From positions 45,141-109,140 of IMG/VR virus record IMGVR_UViG_3300008108_002889: a DNA stretch of 64,000 nucleotides, one strand, 5' to 3'. Within the stretch, counting starts at the first letter, position 1; every line of letters starts with the position of its first letter. The position numbers and the translations under genes are program-made. Source of the stretch: a virus. The notes under the pieces are model-generated. The model was not told the origin of the DNA. It did not search any database and was given only the letters and a program-made list of their open reading frames with translations. Below are positions 13,976 through 54,841 of this stretch, one piece after another.

Positions 13976-14374
13976 TTAGTCAGTTTGGGCGATATCTTTT
14001 TGATTGTTTATAGCTTTGATTAGCCCGTATTTTCGAATGTCGTCCGAAAACATATATAGCTCAAATGCCTTTTTCTCGTTGAAAACGGTAAGACTTTGAT
14101 TGGTTAAAAAATAAGGACTGTCCAAAAACTGATCAAAAAATATTATAGTTTGAGGACTCAGTTCAATTTTTTCGTTAAATGGAATTTCGTATTCTTTTAG
14201 ATTTAGTTCGCTCACTATGAATTCGTAGCCTTCTAAACTTAAACGTAACCCGCCACCCTCTTTGGTTCGTTTACTTTGCCACCATTTGTGAAGATGCAGC
14301 CGTACATTTGCTTCGTCCGTACTACGACTCATCTCCTTAAGGAAAATTTTAGTAAATGTTTCTCTAGATATCAT
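13976..14374 (-). CDS. Hypothetical protein
   Basis: ORF coupled to the upstream gene (ATGA). Confidence 0.65.
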   Translation of the reverse strand: MISRETFTKIFLKEMSRSTDEANVRLHLHKWWQSKRTKEGGGLRLSLEGYEFIVSELNLKEYEIPFNEKIELSPQTIIFFDQFLDSPYFLTNQSLTVFNEKKAFELYMFSDDIRKYGLIKAINNQKDIAQTD

Positions 14375-14655
14375 TTAAGTATTTCACCAGCAGTCAGTTT
14401 GACCACTTGGAAATCGTCACTGTTAAACATTCTATTCAGCTTCTTGGCTAGATTAATAGCATGTCCAGGATTGGAGAAACTTACTTTTTTGTATTTTGGT
14501 CCAGGATAGCTGGTGAGGCTATTAAAGCTTTTGAGATTAAATGGCTGATTTTTGTAAAACACAGCCCATATAGCTTCTGAATCTAATACTTGTTCTGTCT
14601 TATACGTTTTTTTATTTGTATATTCGAGCAAAACTTTTGGTTTTGGCCTACTCAT
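14371..14655 (-). CDS. Hypothetical protein
   Basis: ORF with RBS, downstream of a TAAATA motif. Confidence 0.7.
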   Translation of the reverse strand: MSRPKPKVLLEYTNKKTYKTEQVLDSEAIWAVFYKNQPFNLKSFNSLTSYPGPKYKKVSFSNPGHAINLAKKLNRMFNSDDFQVVKLTAGEILK

Positions 14656-28819: not shown

Positions 28820-28848
28820 AGTATATAGGTTTTTTTGTTAAAAGTCAA
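28820..28848 (-). promoter_or_regulatory. sigma70-type promoter embedded in the polB 3' end
   Basis: TTGACT-N17-TATACT. Confidence 0.6.
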
Positions 28849-31501
28849 ACAATTTATTGAAGGTATTGGTCTGTTCGGTTGACCTAATGTCCCAATTAAG
28901 TACACCAATTAGGTTACCCAATTTATTATCAATAATTGTAGCTTCCATTTCTTCGTGATCAAACGGTAAGTCTTTGAACCACTGTGGTAGCCGTAGTTCA
29001 TCTACCGGATAAGCTACCGAAGTAAATCCCAACGGATTATCTTTGATCTTACAGACAATTACTTTGGCACCGTCTGTGATCTGCATTGAGTACTTGTCGC
29101 CATACATACGTTTGAGCGTATTCCAGTTAATGCTGGCTCGAACGTGTCCAGGCATATTAGTCTTGCCGTTCTTTTCTTCTTTGCCCTGATAGGCAGTGAT
29201 ATTGTTAGCACGTTTAGGGCTACCCTTTTCCCATCCTGGACGAGCTTTGAAGTTAGTACGGAATTCAGTAATATGATCTAATACCTGTTCTTCTGTGGCA
29301 CCAGTTAAGACTTTCTCCAAAATATCACTTAAGAAGTTTTGAATAAATTCTGGCGTATCACTACGTTTCAGATCCAAGCCCATGGCCTTGATCTTACCCG
29401 GCTTACCTTCAATGTCTTGACGCTTGCCTTCTTTGTCATAGTACAAGACAGCATAACGTTTCTTGGTAATGAACAAACTCTTTGAACCAACAATCTCACG
29501 ACCAGCTTTGATAACTTCACCACGAGATTTAGGACAGTGGAAAGCATCTAACATAAACTGTGGGAATGTATTGTTGACTTCATCTCCAATTTGATCATAG
29601 AGTTGGATCACAGTTTCTTTAGTCCAAGGAATGTGTCCTGCTTCAATTTCTTTCTTTAGTGTTTTGTATGCACTAAAATAACATGAGTCAGTGTCGCCGT
29701 AGATAATTGCTTTGCCTACGTGATTGTATTCCCCAGTGATAATCTCATTGACCTTTGATGCCATATGCTTGGCAATCTGTCTTCCTGTTAAAGTAGTGCT
29801 CTGACCAATACGCTTATCAAAAAAACGACAACCGGGGTTAAGAATAGCACCATATAAGGAATTGAGGTTAATCTTCTTAACCAACTGACGTTTGTCCCAA
29901 TATTCTTCTTCAACTTTATTACCTGCTTGAATACATTCTTTGAGTTTGGCCTGCATCTCTTTACGTTCAGCATACCAGCGTTTTAACAACCCGGGAATAA
30001 TACCTTCTTTTTCATAGGTAAAGATTGTTCCGTTAGCACTCAACATAAATGATTGACCGCTGTCAAAGATTAATCTATTAACTTCGGCAGCACTTAATAC
30101 ATCAACTGCACCGTCTTGCCAGTCGATAGTAATCTCAGAGCCAATCTCTTTGTTCATCACTGCGGTATACTCTAATGAACCAAAGATACCTTCCCAAGCA
30201 GCCGCAAAGCTTTTACCTTTGGCAGTTAATCCGTCAATGTACTCTTTGGTCATTGTAGGACGTAGTTGACCTACAATAGTTTCTGGTCCCATGTTCAATG
30301 CACGAATAGCACTTGGATACAAGGAGTTAATGTCTAATGAGCCAACCCAGTCTTGCAGACCTTCTTTGGGATAGGCAACATAAGCACCAGCGGCAGCAGT
30401 ATCTTCGCTTTCATCACGCTTGGGTCGATTAGGAACTTGAAAACCTCTACGATGGCATTCGTTGATAATAGCCTGTTCAGTAACAGCCACAGCACCCATT
30501 GTGGTCTGTAGTAGCACAGTACATTCGTGTGCCAGTTTGTTGCTTAAATCGATGAACTTGAGCTTTTGATCCAGTTTGTTGAGCAAGGCACAGTCTTGCC
30601 TGTTGTATTCGACAAACTTGCGGAAGTCATTGTTGTAGAGTTGATCCAGTGTACCTTCGTAGACTGTTTTTGATTCTCCAATCTCCATCTCTCCGATGGC
30701 ATCCAATCGATAGGTGTGTCGTTCTTCATAGGTGTATTTTCTGTAAAGTTCTAGACTGTCAAGATGCACACGACCATGTAGATCATATGTAGTGGCAGTT
30801 TTACCATACTTTTCATATTCACGTTTTTTAGGATATTGATCCCACAAGCAAAGTCTGCGTGTGTCGTCTTTGCTCAATACTTTGGTAATGCGGTTAACAG
30901 TATAGGGCATATCAAAGCCCTCGCTGTTCCAACCACTTAAAATATCCGCATCTTGAATAAGATTCAAGAACGTGTCCAGCATGTCTGCTTCATTGTCAAA
31001 GATATGTGTGTTGGGAAAATCTCTGACTAGTTCTTCTGCTTGGGCAATAGTCATGCCTTTTGGAGGCACAGCAAGACAAACTAATGTATCTAACCATTGT
31101 AGGTGGACAGCAATGGCAGTAATTGGCATGAATGCATCATCTGGCGATGCATAGCCACGTTCTGGATCGAAGTCCACCTCAATATCCCAAAAAGCTACAT
31201 TGAGTTTTGGTGCGTCTTGATTAAGATAGTTTTCACTCAAGCATACAAATATTGGATTAATATCTGCTTCGTAGAGTGTTTTGTTGTTGTGAATCGCAAG
31301 TTCTTTGCGAAAGTCTTTGGTGTTTTTACAAACGATGCGACTTAAAGGGTCTCCATGAATACTTTGGAATTTACCTCTAGCATCTGGATAATAAAACGTA
31401 TAACGAACTGGAAATTCTTTAAAGACTCGATTTCCATCTTTATCACGTTCCACTACTTTAATAATATCAGCATCACGCTGAAAGAGTGCGTCTACGTACA
31501 A
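28838..31501 (-). CDS. Family B DNA polymerase (gp43-like)
   Basis: Exonuclease DIE, WNSEGFD, YNRQD; polymerase DINSLYPS, KINLNSLYG, YGDTDS, KKRY; TTG start behind AGGAG. Confidence 0.97.
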   Translation of the reverse strand: MYVDALFQRDADIIKVVERDKDGNRVFKEFPVRYTFYYPDARGKFQSIHGDPLSRIVCKNTKDFRKELAIHNNKTLYEADINPIFVCLSENYLNQDAPKLNVAFWDIEVDFDPERGYASPDDAFMPITAIAVHLQWLDTLVCLAVPPKGMTIAQAEELVRDFPNTHIFDNEADMLDTFLNLIQDADILSGWNSEGFDMPYTVNRITKVLSKDDTRRLCLWDQYPKKREYEKYGKTATTYDLHGRVHLDSLELYRKYTYEERHTYRLDAIGEMEIGESKTVYEGTLDQLYNNDFRKFVEYNRQDCALLNKLDQKLKFIDLSNKLAHECTVLLQTTMGAVAVTEQAIINECHRRGFQVPNRPKRDESEDTAAAGAYVAYPKEGLQDWVGSLDINSLYPSAIRALNMGPETIVGQLRPTMTKEYIDGLTAKGKSFAAAWEGIFGSLEYTAVMNKEIGSEITIDWQDGAVDVLSAAEVNRLIFDSGQSFMLSANGTIFTYEKEGIIPGLLKRWYAERKEMQAKLKECIQAGNKVEEEYWDKRQLVKKINLNSLYGAILNPGCRFFDKRIGQSTTLTGRQIAKHMASKVNEIITGEYNHVGKAIIYGDTDSCYFSAYKTLKKEIEAGHIPWTKETVIQLYDQIGDEVNNTFPQFMLDAFHCPKSRGEVIKAGREIVGSKSLFITKKRYAVLYYDKEGKRQDIEGKPGKIKAMGLDLKRSDTPEFIQNFLSDILEKVLTGATEEQVLDHITEFRTNFKARPGWEKGSPKRANNITAYQGKEEKNGKTNMPGHVRASINWNTLKRMYGDKYSMQITDGAKVIVCKIKDNPLGFTSVAYPVDELRLPQWFKDLPFDHEEMEATIIDNKLGNLIGVLNWDIRSTEQTNTFNKLFDF

Positions 31502-32229: not shown

Positions 32230-34716
32230 TCAGCGTAGGCCGGCAATGGATAGTATTCTATCAAGTTCCTCTGCTACAGGCTGAAGTTGCGGATAGTTTT
32301 TAATTTTTCCATTCTGTATCTCTGCTTTATAAAACATATCTGCTTTTCTTTCATCGCTTGGAGATAACTTGCCATCCTTGTCTTGTTTGTATCCTTTGGC
32401 TTTTACTATGGCTAGATACTCTTGAGTACTTCTTGCCTTGATAATATCTAATCTTTCAATTCTTACTTGACCACTTGATGCTGCCGCTGGATTAGCTGGC
32501 GCTGCCTGCTGTTGTCCACCTGCTGCCTGCTGTTGTCCACCTGCTGCTGGTGCAGCCGGGGCATCTGGTTTCTTCCAATTACTAGGGGGGTTAGCTAAAA
32601 CTTTATCAACTTCTGCTCTGAGCTCTTTTGGAACATTGTCAATTGTTTGCACTTTTCCGGCTTTATCTTTAGCACCAGTAAACACACTAAAAGCCCAGTC
32701 ATTAGCTGCTTTGGTAGGGCTTACATAGGGCTGTGCTTTTGCTTGTTGAGTATTTGTTGCCGCTGGATTAGCTGGATTAGCTGCCGCTGGATTAGCTGGA
32801 TTAGCTGCCGCAGCATTTGGTTTACCAATCCTGTCCATACCACCGGGAGGAGTACCTTTGTACTTGCCTGCGGCAATACCATCTAAAGTATCTCCTTTGG
32901 CTACAACATACTCTTTGTCACCGGGTAGTTTGATTGTTTGGCCGACGCGAATCTTATTAACGTCTTTGATTTCAGGATTTAACTTTTGAATTTCTTGACT
33001 GCCTGCGCTGCCTTTGTATCCTGAAGCTGTTTTTGTAGCATCTGCTGGGTTGTTTATCTGCGTAGGAGATGCAGATGCTTGGAATTCTTTCACTGCTGCT
33101 AAAACTTCTGGAGGGATGCCTTCTGCACCACTGTTAACAGTATTGATAACTTCTTGACTTATTGCTTGTAATTCTTTTTCTTCGGCTGGATCAAGTGCTT
33201 CAGACAATACTGATTCTTCTAGCATTTTGAGTCGAGACATTAAATTAGCTAGAGATTCTTGCGTTCCAACAGCCGTTTGACTAGCCTGTGCTGGGTTAGT
33301 CACTGTTGTTGGTCCACCAGCACTTGCTTTCTTTTTATTCATAAGGAAAACAAATCGATCCATCTTTTCTTGTGCAGTAGATTGTGGTGTTGTTGGCTTA
33401 CTGCCTTTTTCACCACCCGCTGTTGTAGTATTACCACCCGCTGTTGTAGTATTACCACCCGCTGTTGTAGTATTACCACCCGCTGTTGTAGTATTACCAC
33501 CTGGCTGCTGTGATAAATCAACAGTTGATCCGCCTGCGGGCGTAGCCTGCCATCGATTTTCTCCGTCGTAGGTCCCAACTACTTTGCCGTCTTTGTCAAC
33601 AGCAACAACTTTGCCGCCTTCCATTTTTAATTCTGTAGCGTTTCTGAATGCAGGAAGCGTTTTACTGAACGGAACATTTAACGGTACTCCGGGTCCGTAT
33701 TTTACACCAGCTTGATGCTCTATTTTTGCTCTTTTAGCAGCATCGTCATCACCTGCTTGTGCTGTACCTGCTTGTGCTGTACCTGCTTGTGCTGTTGTTG
33801 CTTTTTTAGCGTCAGCAGCCTTTTTAGCATCTAATACTTTCTGAGCTGCGTTAAGGGCCGCGACTACTTCGGGATCGTCACCCATGTCGCCAAGTTCTTT
33901 CATAATGGCATTGATTTGAGAAACTAAATCTCCTCCACCGCCTGGCAAAGCAGGAGTAAAAGGAGTCCCACCAGCCGGCCCAGCGTTTGCAGGTACGGGA
34001 TCGTTAGTGTAAATATTCATCCCGTTGACGGTTTTCATGCTGGCTGGTCTTGAAGGATCTGCTTTTTCTGATAGCCCAAATTCTTTTAATAGTGATTCTG
34101 CAATTTTATAGTCAACTTTACCAACACCTGGATCTGTGTTGCCGCCTTGAACTTCTGCATTTAATTTTGCCACTAGATCATTTAACTGCTTGAGTTTGTC
34201 TGCTTTAAATTTGGCACTAGTTTGATCTGCCCCAACTTTAGCACTAGTTGCTTTTTCTGCATCAAAACCTTGTTGAGCTTTCCCGCCAGACAAAACATTA
34301 ACTAAACCACTTGGCCCGCTGGCATTGCCGGGAATTAACCCTAATGCTGCTAATGCTTTAGTAGCTTCTGAATTAGGAGGTGCTATTTGTACGGCAGTTG
34401 TTGGTTTCTGTGTGTAAGAATTTATGTCTCCGCGTTTGTCATCAGCAACTACAAATTCACCTTTGCTGTTAAACAGGCCTGGAAGTTTATGCTGTGCAGC
34501 CAGTTTAGCTAGGGCAACATTACCTGCGGTTCTCGGATCTAGTTTAAATATTCCACCAAACCTGCCAGTTTTTTTGTCAGCTTCTGCCTTGGCCATAGCA
34601 TCCTTCTCAACAGCCTGTACCTGTTGAAGTGTAAGCTGTTCCATGAGAGTTTGCTCCATAAGAGTCTTCTTCTTATCTATTTTTTCTAATTTAGCAAGTA
34701 GATCATTAAAGTTCAT
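32230..34716 (-). CDS. Large low-complexity putative virion protein with LysM-like module
   Basis: LNPEIKDVNKIRVGQTIKLP and YVVAKGDTLDGIA (LysM halves); A/G/P/T-rich repeats. Confidence 0.7.
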   Translation of the reverse strand: MNFNDLLAKLEKIDKKKTLMEQTLMEQLTLQQVQAVEKDAMAKAEADKKTGRFGGIFKLDPRTAGNVALAKLAAQHKLPGLFNSKGEFVVADDKRGDINSYTQKPTTAVQIAPPNSEATKALAALGLIPGNASGPSGLVNVLSGGKAQQGFDAEKATSAKVGADQTSAKFKADKLKQLNDLVAKLNAEVQGGNTDPGVGKVDYKIAESLLKEFGLSEKADPSRPASMKTVNGMNIYTNDPVPANAGPAGGTPFTPALPGGGGDLVSQINAIMKELGDMGDDPEVVAALNAAQKVLDAKKAADAKKATTAQAGTAQAGTAQAGDDDAAKRAKIEHQAGVKYGPGVPLNVPFSKTLPAFRNATELKMEGGKVVAVDKDGKVVGTYDGENRWQATPAGGSTVDLSQQPGGNTTTAGGNTTTAGGNTTTAGGNTTTAGGEKGSKPTTPQSTAQEKMDRFVFLMNKKKASAGGPTTVTNPAQASQTAVGTQESLANLMSRLKMLEESVLSEALDPAEEKELQAISQEVINTVNSGAEGIPPEVLAAVKEFQASASPTQINNPADATKTASGYKGSAGSQEIQKLNPEIKDVNKIRVGQTIKLPGDKEYVVAKGDTLDGIAAGKYKGTPPGGMDRIGKPNAAAANPANPAAANPANPAATNTQQAKAQPYVSPTKAANDWAFSVFTGAKDKAGKVQTIDNVPKELRAEVDKVLANPPSNWKKPDAPAAPAAGGQQQAAGGQQQAAPANPAAASSGQVRIERLDIIKARSTQEYLAIVKAKGYKQDKDGKLSPSDERKADMFYKAEIQNGKIKNYPQLQPVAEELDRILSIAGLR
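33412..33501. repeat. 4 x 21-bp perfect coding tandem repeat (GGNTTTA)
   Basis: Unit ACCACCCGCTGTTGTAGTATT. Confidence 0.95.
33751..33795. repeat. 3 x 15-bp coding tandem repeat (TAQAG)
   Basis: Unit ACCTGCTTGTGCTGT. Confidence 0.9.
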
Positions 34717-34739
34717 AGTCTGTTTCCAATTTTATCAAA

Positions 34740-34745
34740 TATTTA
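34740..34745 (-). promoter_or_regulatory. TAAATA late-type promoter motif
   Basis: The same motif precedes several presumed late genes (36741, 40001, 46332, 48461, 58389). Confidence 0.55.
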
Positions 34746-34746
34746 T

Positions 34747-34839
34747 CAGTGCTCACTTTACATTACACGGTAGCGAATCGCTTCTTGTAGGCAGCAGCCG
34801 CCTGACACCTCCGTAGAGTAACGGTCCCAAGGTAGGTGT
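34747..34839 (-). ncRNA. Candidate structured ncRNA complementary to conserved rRNA sites
   Basis: GC-richer intergenic island with three hairpins; 16/17-nt, 10-nt and 9-nt matches to 23S/16S rRNA (see findings). Confidence 0.65.
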
Positions 34840-35582: not shown

Positions 35583-36719
35583 TTATGCTGCTTTCTTTTT
35601 AGCAATGGCAATCGCTGCCTGCTGTTTAAGATTTTTAGACTTACCAGCTTCCATCATGCTACCACATTCTTTTAGGCCGTGTACTGGACAGCTTTTACCT
35701 TTTGGTGTGTGATTGCATTTGTTTTCTTTTACTGGTCTTGTTGGTTGAGCTTGATTTGCAAGATCATTTGCAGCACCGGCTCTGGCAGTTCTTGCAGCCT
35801 GTGGATCAGGCATAGTATTTTCCATCTTCTTACCAAACTTCTCACCGCCTTTCATACCCCAGGTGTTGCCCTTGTGTTTAGGTAACTTAATTTCACGGGC
35901 TTTGTCAGCTTTCTTTTCAGCAGCAGATTTTTGTTTTACTTTGCTGGTTGGTTCGCCGTGTTCTTCATCTGAGTGACTGGTATTAACGTGCTTAACACCT
36001 GTAGCAGTTTTAGTCAATACTCCAGTGCGTGTTTTTTTAGAATCGCCTGTCTTCTTAAGCTCACTTGACTCTTCTTTGACAGCCTTGCCACCTTTTTCGT
36101 CTTTGCCTAAACGTCCAGCAACAACATCACCACGTGTTACTTTGTCGTAGGGTTTAGCGTTGTTAGCTAGGTTGCCGTCACCCTTTTTAGATTTAGCAGC
36201 TTCTCTAACAGGTTTGGCCAATGCAGGGTTTGTAGGACCCATGGCTTTCTGACCAGTCTTGGGATTAATATCTCCCCAGCGGATACCTTTGTTTGGACCA
36301 GCAACAATTACAGGATACTTTCCGTCTTTGCCTTTTGGAGGAGGAGCACTTTCACCATCTGGATCATAAGGCAGTTGCAAGCCTGACTCGTCCATGTTTT
36401 GTGCAGCTTTTTTAAGTTTATTTAATTTTTGTTTTGCTTCAACTAGCTTCTGACGGAACTCAGCTTTAACAGATTCTGAGTACATGTCGCTGTTTTCAAT
36501 TTTGTTACCGTATTCGCTAAACTTCATTTCGTACTCCATGTAATGATATACGCTGGCTACATAGTCAGCGGCTTTGGTAATTTTAGCCTGTACCCATCCT
36601 TCTAGTTGATCACCGTCTCTGATCATTTTAAAAAGTTTAAAGCTATAATTAGCCATCTTATAAAGATCAGCTCTAGCCATAGCAGCTTCGTGATCATCTG
36701 GACGCATATTTAAATCCAT
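35583..36719 (-). CDS. Lys-rich hypothetical protein (putative head cargo)
   Basis: LEGWVQAKITKA.DY N-terminal domain, CPVHG.KEC motif; TAAATA at 36741-36746 and GGAG RBS. Confidence 0.75.
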   Translation of the reverse strand: MDLNMRPDDHEAAMARADLYKMANYSFKLFKMIRDGDQLEGWVQAKITKAADYVASVYHYMEYEMKFSEYGNKIENSDMYSESVKAEFRQKLVEAKQKLNKLKKAAQNMDESGLQLPYDPDGESAPPPKGKDGKYPVIVAGPNKGIRWGDINPKTGQKAMGPTNPALAKPVREAAKSKKGDGNLANNAKPYDKVTRGDVVAGRLGKDEKGGKAVKEESSELKKTGDSKKTRTGVLTKTATGVKHVNTSHSDEEHGEPTSKVKQKSAAEKKADKAREIKLPKHKGNTWGMKGGEKFGKKMENTMPDPQAARTARAGAANDLANQAQPTRPVKENKCNHTPKGKSCPVHGLKECGSMMEAGKSKNLKQQAAIAIAKKKAA

Positions 36720-38929: not shown

Positions 38930-39979
38930 TTACCAAGCCCTACATGACCAATAACGTGCCTTCCAACGTGGACCAGGATTGTCGCAGTTGTGACGGGCAC
39001 GGAAGTTTTTGCGGCGACCAGGAATATGCTTTTTAATGCTTAATTTCTTGTCACCAAAATTTACTTTAACTACTTTACCATTGGGTTTACGCACATAAAC
39101 TTTAGACTTTTTAACATCACCCTTCATAGGCTTGCCTAAAGGCACAGTACGCCCTTGATAGTCAGCTTCAGTAATTAGCTCAACACTTGATTCTCCAAGC
39201 ATTTTTATGGCTTCGCTATCTAATGCAATAAGAATACTGTCTTCCCAGCTTTCTAATACAGTGGTTTCGATAACTGTATCTTCACTGATCTCTATTTCAA
39301 ATCCATCTCCGGGATGAACATCGCCTTCTAATTCTATTTGTTCAATATATTCAACTAATTTTTTACTTTTTATGTTTGTTGATTCTTGTGTAGGAGACGG
39401 TATTGGTGTAGACGGAGTTTGAGCAGCTGGCTGTGCAGGACTTAAACTAAAATCTTTAGGTATAAATTTTAAAACTTCTTCTGGAGACATGCCTGTGTTT
39501 AATGCAATTTTTGCCGTGCCCTGCGGATCATCAAAATGTGTAATCATCGGCAGTAGGTTCTTTGTCACTTCGTCTTGGCTCATAGGTGCTTGTCCAAACT
39601 CTTGTTCTTGTTTTTTAAAACGTGCTATAGCTTGCGGGTCTACAAGAGTTTTCAATATTTCCAAATTACTAACAGTAAAATCTTGTCCTGGTACTCGGCC
39701 TTGAACCTCTACTTTAGGTTTGTTCAGATCAGCTGGACTAACTGTATTGTTGGCCTTAAAGTCTGCCATGGCCTTTTCGTATTCAGCTCTAGATTTGCTG
39801 CCAATCTTTTGATACCGTGTCCAGCCCTTTTGTGGGCCATCTGGTATAATAGTTTTAGTATATCCAGGGCGATCAGGTGCAGGTCCAGGCGGTATCGGTG
39901 CATTAGGCCCAATGCCTGGTGGCGGCCCTTCATTTAGAATGTCTAAATAGCTACGTAGTATATGTGAATGCACCGACAT
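38930..39979 (-). CDS. Hypothetical protein with basic C-terminal domain
   Basis: C-terminal KVNFGD...RRKNFRARHNC...KARYWSC..W. Confidence 0.7.
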   Translation of the reverse strand: MSVHSHILRSYLDILNEGPPPGIGPNAPIPPGPAPDRPGYTKTIIPDGPQKGWTRYQKIGSKSRAEYEKAMADFKANNTVSPADLNKPKVEVQGRVPGQDFTVSNLEILKTLVDPQAIARFKKQEQEFGQAPMSQDEVTKNLLPMITHFDDPQGTAKIALNTGMSPEEVLKFIPKDFSLSPAQPAAQTPSTPIPSPTQESTNIKSKKLVEYIEQIELEGDVHPGDGFEIEISEDTVIETTVLESWEDSILIALDSEAIKMLGESSVELITEADYQGRTVPLGKPMKGDVKKSKVYVRKPNGKVVKVNFGDKKLSIKKHIPGRRKNFRARHNCDNPGPRWKARYWSCRAW

Positions 39980-53314: not shown

Positions 53315-53522
53315 GTCCTTGATCTCTATTTTGGTATTGTTGCTCGAGAAGTTTTGATCTTCTTGTCGAAAGCTCTTCTCTGTATAAACCTATAAAGGTA
53401 GAAATTTGTTGTTTGACTGCAGGATTTTGAGCGATCCAATATTTTTTAGTCAGATCCTGCAATCTATTTTCAATCTCTGTTTCTTTAAGCTGGCTAAAAT
53501 CTTCAGACAAAGGGTGTATCAT
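53289..53522 (-). CDS. Hypothetical protein
   Basis: Coupled ORF. Confidence 0.6.
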   Translation of the reverse strand: MIHPLSEDFSQLKETEIENRLQDLTKKYWIAQNPAVKQQISTFIGLYREELSTRRSKLLEQQYQNRDQGLDKLINVS

Positions 53523-54841
53523 GCAAACTCGCCAATAAATTTAATATAAACAACATTGTCGTATGGATCTTTCCATGCTTCAATTACTTTTCTTCTTGAT
53601 GTATCTGCACTAACAGTAAATGGTGCTACTATAGACTGTGCATTTCTAGTAACAGTAAGATTGGAACCAAATGCTACTGCCTGTCCAGAATCCCATGTAA
53701 CAGTAAGGATTGTTCTAGGAACTTGAGTAAGTGTACCAGATGCTGTTGAAAAAGTTTGAATTGCTGTGCCACCGTGATTCGTAGCTATTCTAATTCTTGT
53801 TCCGCTGATAATTGCAGAAACAAAATAGTCAGTTAACGATAATAGACCACCGAACCCTGTACCAGTGAAGCTAATTGGCATACCAACATACATGTTTGTT
53901 GAATCAATTGTCACAGTATTTGCATCGCCTGATAATGGAAAAGAAGCATTTTGAGACCCACCGGTATATGCACCAGTGGTTGCTATTGCAACATAACTTA
54001 CTGGGCTACTAGATAGTTTTATATCTCCGCCAACTTTATAAGCATAGTATGTTTGCGTAATACTTAATTCTGGTACTCCGGTGATGCTTGCTAATTTAAC
54101 TGGATCACCATCTGTAACAGATGCAATGCTACTACTCATAGTTACAAAAGTATCAGCCCCAACTACAATATTAGAGTATCCAATGGTTAATGTAGCTGTA
54201 GTACCGGTTGCATTACCGGTCATTGGTGTTACTGCTGAAACTGTTACAGTTCCAGTAATGCCTGTTCCGTATACAGTGTTACCAACTTCAAATATTCCTG
54301 ATGTAAGGTTAGAATTAATATAGGTAAGTCTAGTTGTATTTGATAGTACGGATTTTAATTCTCGTACTGCACCAGTAGCAACTGCTAGGTTTTGACCAAT
54401 TTCATATTTAACTGTGCCGCCACCGGTAGTAGCAAATGTAATAGTTCTTTGCGTACCGTCACTTCTTAATTCTAGGCGGATACGTCCGTATTTGTCGTTA
54501 CCGGGCCAACCTTCAAAAGTAATAAGTCTATCAGCACCTGCTACTTCAATAAGCTGATATTCACCGTTGGTAAGACTTACTGCTAGGTTTGAAGTAGCAG
54601 TAGTTTGATACGCACCTCCCCACGCACGACTTAATACTAGATTATCTAATATATTTCCGTTAAAGTTATTAGTACCGTTTATTTTGGCTGTGGTATCTTG
54701 TAATGTTGTAATTTCGCTAGCCGCAGTAGACAAGCCGGTTTTAATAACATTAAAGTTATCTCTAAATCCTTGACTGTCGTTGTCAACTCCTGCTACTGGA
54801 AAATTAGCATCTATAGTGTTTGCTACTATTGCACTGGTCAT
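53519..54841 (-). CDS. Putative tail/baseplate structural protein
   Basis: FPVAGVDNDSQGFRDNF N-terminus; T/G/S-rich beta-type body. Confidence 0.6.
   Translation of the reverse strand: MTSAIVANTIDANFPVAGVDNDSQGFRDNFNVIKTGLSTAASEITTLQDTTAKINGTNNFNGNILDNLVLSRAWGGAYQTTATSNLAVSLTNGEYQLIEVAGADRLITFEGWPGNDKYGRIRLELRSDGTQRTITFATTGGGTVKYEIGQNLAVATGAVRELKSVLSNTTRLTYINSNLTSGIFEVGNTVYGTGITGTVTVSAVTPMTGNATGTTATLTIGYSNIVVGADTFVTMSSSIASVTDGDPVKLASITGVPELSITQTYYAYKVGGDIKLSSSPVSYVAIATTGAYTGGSQNASFPLSGDANTVTIDSTNMYVGMPISFTGTGFGGLLSLTDYFVSAIISGTRIRIATNHGGTAIQTFSTASGTLTQVPRTILTVTWDSGQAVAFGSNLTVTRNAQSIVAPFTVSADTSRRKVIEAWKDPYDNVVYIKFIGEFA

Follow-up and report, generated by a model that had tools for sequence, protein, structure and literature searches.

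We uncovered a structured RNA of about 90 nt in a clade of uncultured, aquatic, T4-related jumbo phages. The exposed bases with the highest conservation in this RNA are antisense to a segment of the 23S rRNA interface that is among the most invariant. It is near certain that the element is real, conserved and uncatalogued, and it behaves like a core, independent small-RNA gene present about once per genome. Our leading reading of its sequences, which we advance tentatively, is that the RNA may dock at the foot of helix 69 in 23S rRNA. With slightly more reserve still, it can be proposed that this core phage small RNA would pair with the helix 69-70 segment (1920-1937), thereby capturing or reprogramming large subunits.

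The element was recognized in a window of viral DNA, i.e., the whole 64,000-nt stretch analyzed here, as part of a 123-nt gap between two minus-strand ORFs; this gap constitutes the entire non-coding island and is the only sizeable one within a run of minus-strand genes (Table 1). Members of the family are defined by a hairpin P1 with CCUUAGGACC, a hairpin P2 with a GGCUGCU loop, a hairpin P3 closing a 7-9-nt loop and a 3′ tail, AAGUGAGC. All four blocks are present in the window copy, with a single A-to-G change in the loop of P1.

Table 1. Coordinates of the RNA element, its parts and its flanking features in the window
Feature	Position	Strand	Evidence
RNA element, ~90 nt (P1, P2, P3 and conserved 3′ tail)	34750-34839	-	model R1
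Hairpin P1, outer stem ACACCU/AGGUGU (34834-34839 with 34805-34810)	34805-34839	-	stem covaries
Loop L1, CCUUGGGACC in the window, CCUUAGGACC in most members	34823-34832	-	BLAST and free-loop scan
Hairpin P2 (AGGC/GCCU), loop L2 GGCUGCU at 34793-34799	34789-34803	-	covariation
Hairpin P3, two tiers, 9-nt loop L3 AUUCGCUAC at 34770-34778	34763-34789	-	covariation
Conserved 3′ tail AAAGUGAGCA	34750-34759	-	RNAalifold pairing with L3, near-invariance
Upstream ORF, 246 aa, no known family; stop codon abuts P1	34840-35580	-	ORF list, 61 related loci
Downstream ORF, 828 aa, LysM domain	32230-34716	-	Pfam
GATAAATA, T4-late-type promoter-like box for the downstream gene, outside the RNA	34740-34747	-	recurrence
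Other GATAAATA sites	upstream of 35583-36719, 38930-39979, 14371-14655 and 53519-54841	-	

Homologues were gathered via a flanking 20/21-mer and then via loop patterns. The 21-mer from the gap recurs exactly in other contigs, and scanning with it recovered 17 viral and 24 metagenome loci with about 20 distinct variants. A three-loop pattern yielded at least 120 matches in the viral collection, and the blocks that this search had not forced, namely CCUU..C and AAGUGAGC, are present in about 98 of 100 distinct viral matches among the matches listed. The same pattern found at least 120 matches in bacterial genomes; here the other invariant blocks occur in none of the 120 matches listed, and these were accordingly rejected as random. 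In all, at least 167 distinct family members from viral and metagenome contigs were obtained, and the element is contained in DNA runs of more than 10 studies; the assembly artefact that an earlier note on this DNA had considered as an alternative can thus be set aside. Among the 61 viral loci related to the upstream 246-aa protein, the closest, L002, shows two changes over the first 95 nt of the gap (98% identity) versus a protein that is only 85% identical.

A covariance model of the family, R1, retrieves the window copy with 80 bits (E 2e-17) as its sole match in the 109-kb record. The window copy aligns with 110 family members. The RNA was detected with this model in seven of the seven near-complete genomes tested (270-356 kb, 71-100% complete), as a single match in six of them and as a strong match accompanied by a weaker one of 42 bits in G001, a complete relative of 352,754 bp with terminal repeats. 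The second copy of G001 (76935-77016) is decayed: it keeps P2 with L2, the core of L3 and the tail but is devoid of L1. The map position of the RNA differs between genomes, also relative to the genome ends and PolB, and in two of the seven it is missing beside the 246-aa gene and present elsewhere. By PolB, the carrier phages group with Atu_ph07, Phosso and the Asteriusvirus jumbo phages, with the window PolB, a family B DNA polymerase (28838-31501), being closest to that of Sinorhizobium phage Phosso (50%), followed by Agrobacterium phage Atu_ph07 (47%) and the Asteriusvirus jumbo phages (43%). The Atu_ph07 PolB is annotated as two CDS. In the cultured Phosso, Atu_ph07 and vB_Eco_slurp01 the covariance model returned only noise (15.5 bits or less). 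Likewise, blastn against 50,697 phage records gave no match with the locus or with a consensus-like member as query (E up to 1), which is weak evidence of absence with conserved blocks of 10 nt or shorter. The covariance models of Rfam 15 found no match in the element within the window at E up to 10, nor, at E up to 1, in seven loci whose members resemble the consensus, and hence a known Rfam family, another identity that had been allowed for at the outset, was not recovered. Our literature search found nothing relevant on such an RNA.

The fold of the RNA is defined by comparison across the family. Already in the early set of about 20 variants the three stems change by compensating substitutions with the loops remaining constant. 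In the 111 aligned members, the 4-6-bp stem of P2 is paired in 99.8% of cells and displays 34-45 double-sided changes at three of its pairs, whereas the two closing pairs of P3 are paired in 100% and show 55 and 23 double-sided changes, with nine pair combinations. The covariation score amounts to 0.599; shuffles score 0.204 and slid controls at most 0.149. For P1, where the MAFFT alignment is structurally inconsistent, covariation rests on individually listed stems rather than on counts: ACAUA/UAUGU, CACAC/GUGUG, ACUC/GAGU and CCUUAG/CUAAGG occur across the relatives. Many members (long forms) additionally have a variable inner hairpin in P1, once with a UUCG tetraloop, and in these the CUUA part of L1 is paired inside P1. 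Of three hairpins proposed from the single sequence, ACACCU/AGGUGU and AGGCGG/CUGCCU correspond to P1 and P2, respectively; the third, AGCG/CGCU, is not conserved, and in its place the family closes the 9-nt loop AUUCGCUAC with covarying pairs.

These observations bear on the null interpretation that the island is a chance GC-rich gap with an accidental likeness to rRNA. The single-sequence folding energy is indeed no better than that of shuffles on either strand (z 0.15 and 0.21), as would be expected under it; but the compensatory changes in at least 167 distinct homologues, and a gap that is better conserved than the neighboring protein in the comparison with L002, refute it, and we accord it practically no probability. 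The strand can also be read from the family: the stems contain G-U pairs, one of them invariant in P2, that would turn into A-C on the opposite strand, which assigns the fold to the gene-sense (window minus) strand. This upholds the earlier proposal of a minus-strand non-coding RNA and disfavors the alternative of a plus-strand decoy.

The G-U pairs likewise weigh on the idea that the element acts as DNA, as a single-copy replication origin, priming signal or packaging site that operates via single-strand hairpins. G-T pairs are tolerated in DNA hairpins, and the element is single copy, strand-specific, hairpin-rich and adjoins AT-rich promoter DNA. However, an invariant G-U pair along with many G-U variants fits RNA better, the position relative to the genome ends and PolB varies, and in G001 neither the GC skew nor the gene orientation switches at the element (266 kb), such switches being located near 155 and 200 kb. 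We consider this explanation highly improbable.

The P3 loop appears to be engaged by the 3′ tail. In the RNAalifold consensus AGUGAG of the tail pairs with UUCGCU of L3, with six pairs in 111 of 111 sequences. This prediction supports, without proving, a pseudoknot between the P3 loop and the tail; covariation is uninformative on it because both partners are nearly invariant. Barring L2, the tail is the most invariant block of the family. It is invariant in 109 of 111 members when not forced and L2 in 106 of 109 when left free, with the qualification that loop invariance is partly an effect of how the members were collected. Immediately past the tail, AAGUGAGC(A), the sequence becomes variable and unrelated among members.

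What drew attention to the island was a set of rRNA-like strings, and BLAST against the rRNA of E. coli rrnB (L080) reproduced them as reported. On the plus strand, TAACGGTCCCAAGGTAG (34819-34835) matches 23S 1917-1933 at 16 of 17 positions, GGTAGCGAA (34769-34777) matches 23S 1929-1937 (9/9), CAGCAGCCGC (34792-34801) matches 16S 519-528 (10/10) and AGGCAGCAG matches 16S 349-357 (9/9); CACCTCC is likewise found on that strand, at 34806-34812. Taken alone, these raw strings are weak and would not carry a claim. A 16/17 match to rRNA arises in 33 of 20,000 shuffles of the island, and the 64-kb window has exactly one such site, which is about the chance expectation per window; 9-mers and 10-mers found in rRNA make up 3.4% and 0.9% of all such words, respectively, i.e., chance level. 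What lifts the strings above chance is the location of the 17-mer and the 9-mer in loops that a conserved RNA family has kept. CACCTCC, taken to be the anti-SD core, lies in a covarying stem, is not conserved and represents a chance occurrence specific to the window. AGGCAGCAG is spelled in the window only by L2 together with part of the P2 stem, is not conserved in the family and is likewise a chance match specific to the window. The longer 16S match, which had been listed as a further segment, shrinks to the 7-nt loop and one closing pair, a length at chance level.

To test each loop, we scanned with one loop at a time unconstrained. The prediction that the rRNA-matching segments are conserved holds for L1 and L2, which are conserved across the family, but not throughout for L3, whose match some 30% of members lack. 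The 23S segment to which L1, CCUUAGGACC, is antisense is 1921-1930, extending to 1917-1933 for L1 with its flanks (34819-34835) in the window. Its core is nearly invariant when left free, and the new variants that emerged are A-to-G changes that keep a G-U pair with the rRNA. The window copy is itself one of these variants: its single mismatch is an A-to-G change yielding the G-U wobble that had been noted from the sequence, and in most relatives the complement is perfect. The exact stretch antisense to 23S usually spans 11-13 nt and reaches up to 17, having been extended by different lineages in different directions, to 1933 or to 1916. In a clade with CCCUAGG, there is one C-A mismatch to the rRNA, with a matching change in the RNA's own stem; this clade still has 10 contiguous rRNA pairs by means of a GUU flank. 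Among the L1 variants of the family, changes that break rRNA pairing (U-to-C and C-to-A) are about as frequent as those that keep it (A-to-G and C-to-U).

The remaining conserved blocks relate differently to rRNA. L2, GGCUGCU, is antisense to 16S 520-526, and 7-9 nt are at chance level on their own. For L3, AUUCGCUAC, the antisense segment is 23S 1930-1937, but 41 of 137 members (~30%) have another loop instead, namely AGUCGUG, CUCGCUAY, CGCCAUUC and others. With these replacements the loop can still pair with the tail, equally well or better, but no longer matches rRNA; in the U-to-C variant CUCGCUAY tail pairing is improved and the rRNA is mismatched. Accordingly, the conservation of L3 is explained better by the pseudoknot than by rRNA. 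The tail, AAGUGAGC, has no rRNA complement by BLAST against E. coli rRNA.

This pattern lends itself to the main alternative, which we regard as a real if somewhat doubtful possibility, namely that the RNA is a trans-acting structured RNA in which the invariant loops and tail constitute a tertiary core or serve as the binding site of a conserved protein or a small ligand. It would then be a scaffold, ribozyme or aptamer, with the antisense likeness to rRNA being a coincidence or a relic. Consistent with this, the most invariant blocks, the tail and L2, have no meaningful rRNA match, the variation of L3 follows the tail with which it is predicted to pair rather than the rRNA, and the second copy of G001 kept L2, the core of L3 and the tail after losing L1. 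Moreover, the raw match of the window is what one 64-kb window gives by chance, and the near-palindrome CCUUAGG within L1 could mediate dimer kissing or protein binding. On the other hand, no conserved neighboring protein gene hints at a partner and no known ribozyme or riboswitch model of Rfam matches. The antisense relationship itself also speaks against it: a 12-mer is expected in rRNA by chance at 5.4e-4 and a second loop abutting it within 3 nt at 4.3e-4; the joint chance of a 12-nt and an abutting 8-nt match on two conserved loops is about 1e-6 to 1e-5, a figure that allows for several blocks and several forms of L3.

We tentatively favor docking on 23S rRNA because two conserved loops are complementary to abutting segments of one universal target and because no rival target was found in a complete phage genome: there is no other site complementary to L1 or L3 in the complete 352-kb genome. 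The window's own record (109 kb, about one third complete) likewise has no site complementary to the loops. As we conceive it, a trans-acting small RNA would use its exposed P1 loop, CCUUAGGACC, with flanks (typically 11-13 nt) to pair with 23S 1920-1931, and in the approximately 70% of members with a AUUCGCUAC loop the pairing could extend across the adjoining 1930-1937. Two loops would thereby be placed on one continuous target, an arrangement comparable to the recognition of IBS2-IBS1 by EBS2 and EBS1 in group II introns. Docking of this kind would be possible only on free or immature 50S subunits, and the docked RNA would cover the surface that forms bridges B2a, B2b and B3; it might thus hold back, mark or re-route large subunits during infection. 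The consequence might be inhibition, tethering or the guiding of an enzyme; the translation shut-off and the guide or splint role suggested in the earlier note are likewise hypothetical. Several points speak against docking. In mature ribosomes, most of the region is structured, with 1920-1924 making up the 3′ strand of helix 69, and a blockage of the 50S subunit would also hurt the phage. To these must be added the variation of L3, the tail without an rRNA complement, the chance-level match of L2, the L1 variants that break pairing, the pairing of part of L1 inside P1 in long forms and the collection effect on loop invariance. As context in favor of docking, the carriers invest in translation, as they encode about 29 tRNAs and a tmRNA; in G001 a 29-tRNA cluster and a permuted tmRNA with the tag ANDEQFALAA are located at 120386-137133.

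Several known systems provide partial parallels to the element. As in the EBS2/EBS1-IBS2/IBS1 interaction of group II introns, two loops of one RNA are complementary to adjoining stretches of one target in the same topology, with the 5′ part of that target facing the 5′ loop (L1 23S 1920-1931; L3 1930-1937 in ~70% of members). Unlike these introns, the element is only about 90 nt long, lies between two unrelated ORFs, lacks domain V and other ribozyme domains, has no adjacent reverse transcriptase or maturase ORF and matches no Rfam intron model, and its second loop is missing in about 30% of members. A second parallel is offered by the TURBS of caliciviruses and influenza B, an mRNA motif near a stop codon that is complementary to rRNA and is proposed to hold the ribosome. 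The element resembles it in being a segment next to a stop codon with a short rRNA-complementary motif. However, TURBS pairs with small-subunit rRNA (18S helix 26) and lies upstream of an overlapping stop and start, whereas the element complements 23S, with the next start 123 nt away behind its own putative promoter and no fixed gene pair.

The C/D and H/ACA guide RNAs of archaea and eukaryotes are similarly small RNAs with conserved single-stranded parts antisense to conserved rRNA. In contrast to them, no such boxes were detected in the element by Rfam models; furthermore, its duplexes abut and overlap by one base, whereas the H/ACA pocket needs an unpaired target base. To our knowledge, there is no C/D or H/ACA guide system in bacteria or phages. 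With pseudoknotted riboswitches and ribozymes, such as SAM/SAH and pistol, the element shares a hairpin loop (P3) that is predicted to pair with a 3′ tail and invariant bases concentrated in loops and tail, but it matches no such model, has no constant downstream gene family and is separated from the next gene by a putative promoter. Finally, the pRNA of phi29 is comparable in being a single-copy phage RNA of about 100 nt whose loops make intermolecular base pairs. There is no sequence or model similarity between the two; the carriers of the element are T4-related jumbo myoviruses rather than phi29-like podoviruses, and the element has no complementary loop pair within itself.

Phages take over translation with proteins, tRNAs and tmRNA; we know of no phage RNA that pairs with ribosomal RNA. 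If the pairing is true, the element would represent a new route of ribosome control and, among bacterial viruses, the first case of a natural antisense RNA directed against rRNA, furnishing a natural 12-17-nt antisense design against a site that is identical in nearly all bacteria. If it is false, there would still be a widespread, uncatalogued class of pseudoknotted RNA.

The genomic context of the element shows no link to a particular gene: across the members, its neighbors fall into 41 upstream and 33 downstream gene families. In the window, its neighbors include PolB, a ClpB-like ATPase, DnaJ and a ferritin, and this, with the diversity of flanking families, contradicts the placement of the RNA at the end of a head-cargo operon; the corollary that it is packaged finds no support in the same evidence. 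The three nearest ORFs have no match in PHROGs, and Pfam recognizes only the LysM domain among them. A search with the 828-aa protein found no loci. Homologues of the downstream protein carry PG_binding_1 and a conserved N-terminus, MD[IL][RK]x[IL][LI]xKL[DE]. This protein ranges from 383 to 854 aa with the 11-residue N-terminus being kept (e.g., L083:6098-7876 and L069:5921-8329), and its peptidoglycan-binding domain is LysM in the window and PG_binding_1 elsewhere. In distant relatives the next gene follows directly after the 246-aa homologue with no RNA between them. At L008, L014, L015, L017 and L019, which are without the RNA, the homologue is extended or followed by a short Cys-rich tail of the pattern ...DPCWK.YK..G.KKKGGK.VPNCVPK.

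No conserved promoter was found upstream of the RNA, and a promoter-like box recurs behind it. GATAAATA is present 27-39 nt upstream of five minus-strand ORFs in the window and is likely a variant of the T4-type late promoter (TATAAATA-like) of this phage. Where relatives lack the RNA, the same downstream gene is still preceded by an ATAAATA box. In 92 of 113 members, only a few bases separate the tail from the start of a TAAATA box, a TTGAC box or a U-run; 49 family members have TAAATA behind the tail, and a U-run stands right after it in 20 of 113. In the window, there is no U-run after either P3 or the tail. In many members, the RNA precedes a sigma70-like promoter and leader of near-identical sequence, with TTGACA, a 17-nt spacer, TATACT and then GUGUUUUAGGAG (L107, L123, L142, L156, L172, L177, L179, L185, L188 and L210), which suggests a shared early-gene leader in these phages.

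In light of this arrangement, the element might alternatively be a cis signal that ends a transcription unit, acting in 3′-end protection, as a processing site or as a factor-dependent terminator or insulator before the next promoter. The RNA always comes after the end of an ORF without an upstream promoter, and the boxes or U-runs set close behind its tail, including the 20 directly adjoining U-runs, would suit such a role. Yet there is one copy per 300-350-kb genome despite dozens of operons, end protection does not need invariant loops, most members, the window copy among them, are without a U-tract, and the same locus works without the RNA in relatives. Hence, we deem a cis signal of this type unlikely. 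Certain narrower assignments were rejected outright. An intrinsic (rho-independent) terminator is incompatible with the absence of a U-tract in the window and a U-run in only 20 of 113 members. A cis leader or riboswitch of the downstream gene is contradicted by the intervening GATAAATA box, the 33 downstream families and the presence of the gene without the RNA in relatives. The 21-mer has no general promoter role, as it occurs once in 64 kb and only its 3′ part, GATAAATA, recurs. A tRNA or tmRNA was also looked for at the island, and none was detected.

Lacking a promoter of its own, the RNA is most likely made as the 3′ end of the upstream transcript. Three metatranscriptome runs cover only small parts of the locus. 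In one of them, X18, two 151-nt records (34508-34658 and 34652-34802) span the ORF start and most of the element at a depth of 2; being contigs, they give neither strand nor ends, and they may reflect DNA carry-over. Among the DNA data, the freshwater run X3 has a contig variant with seven other letters in place of 97 bases (window 35722-35820) within a 378-aa ORF, which looks like strain-level indel variation.
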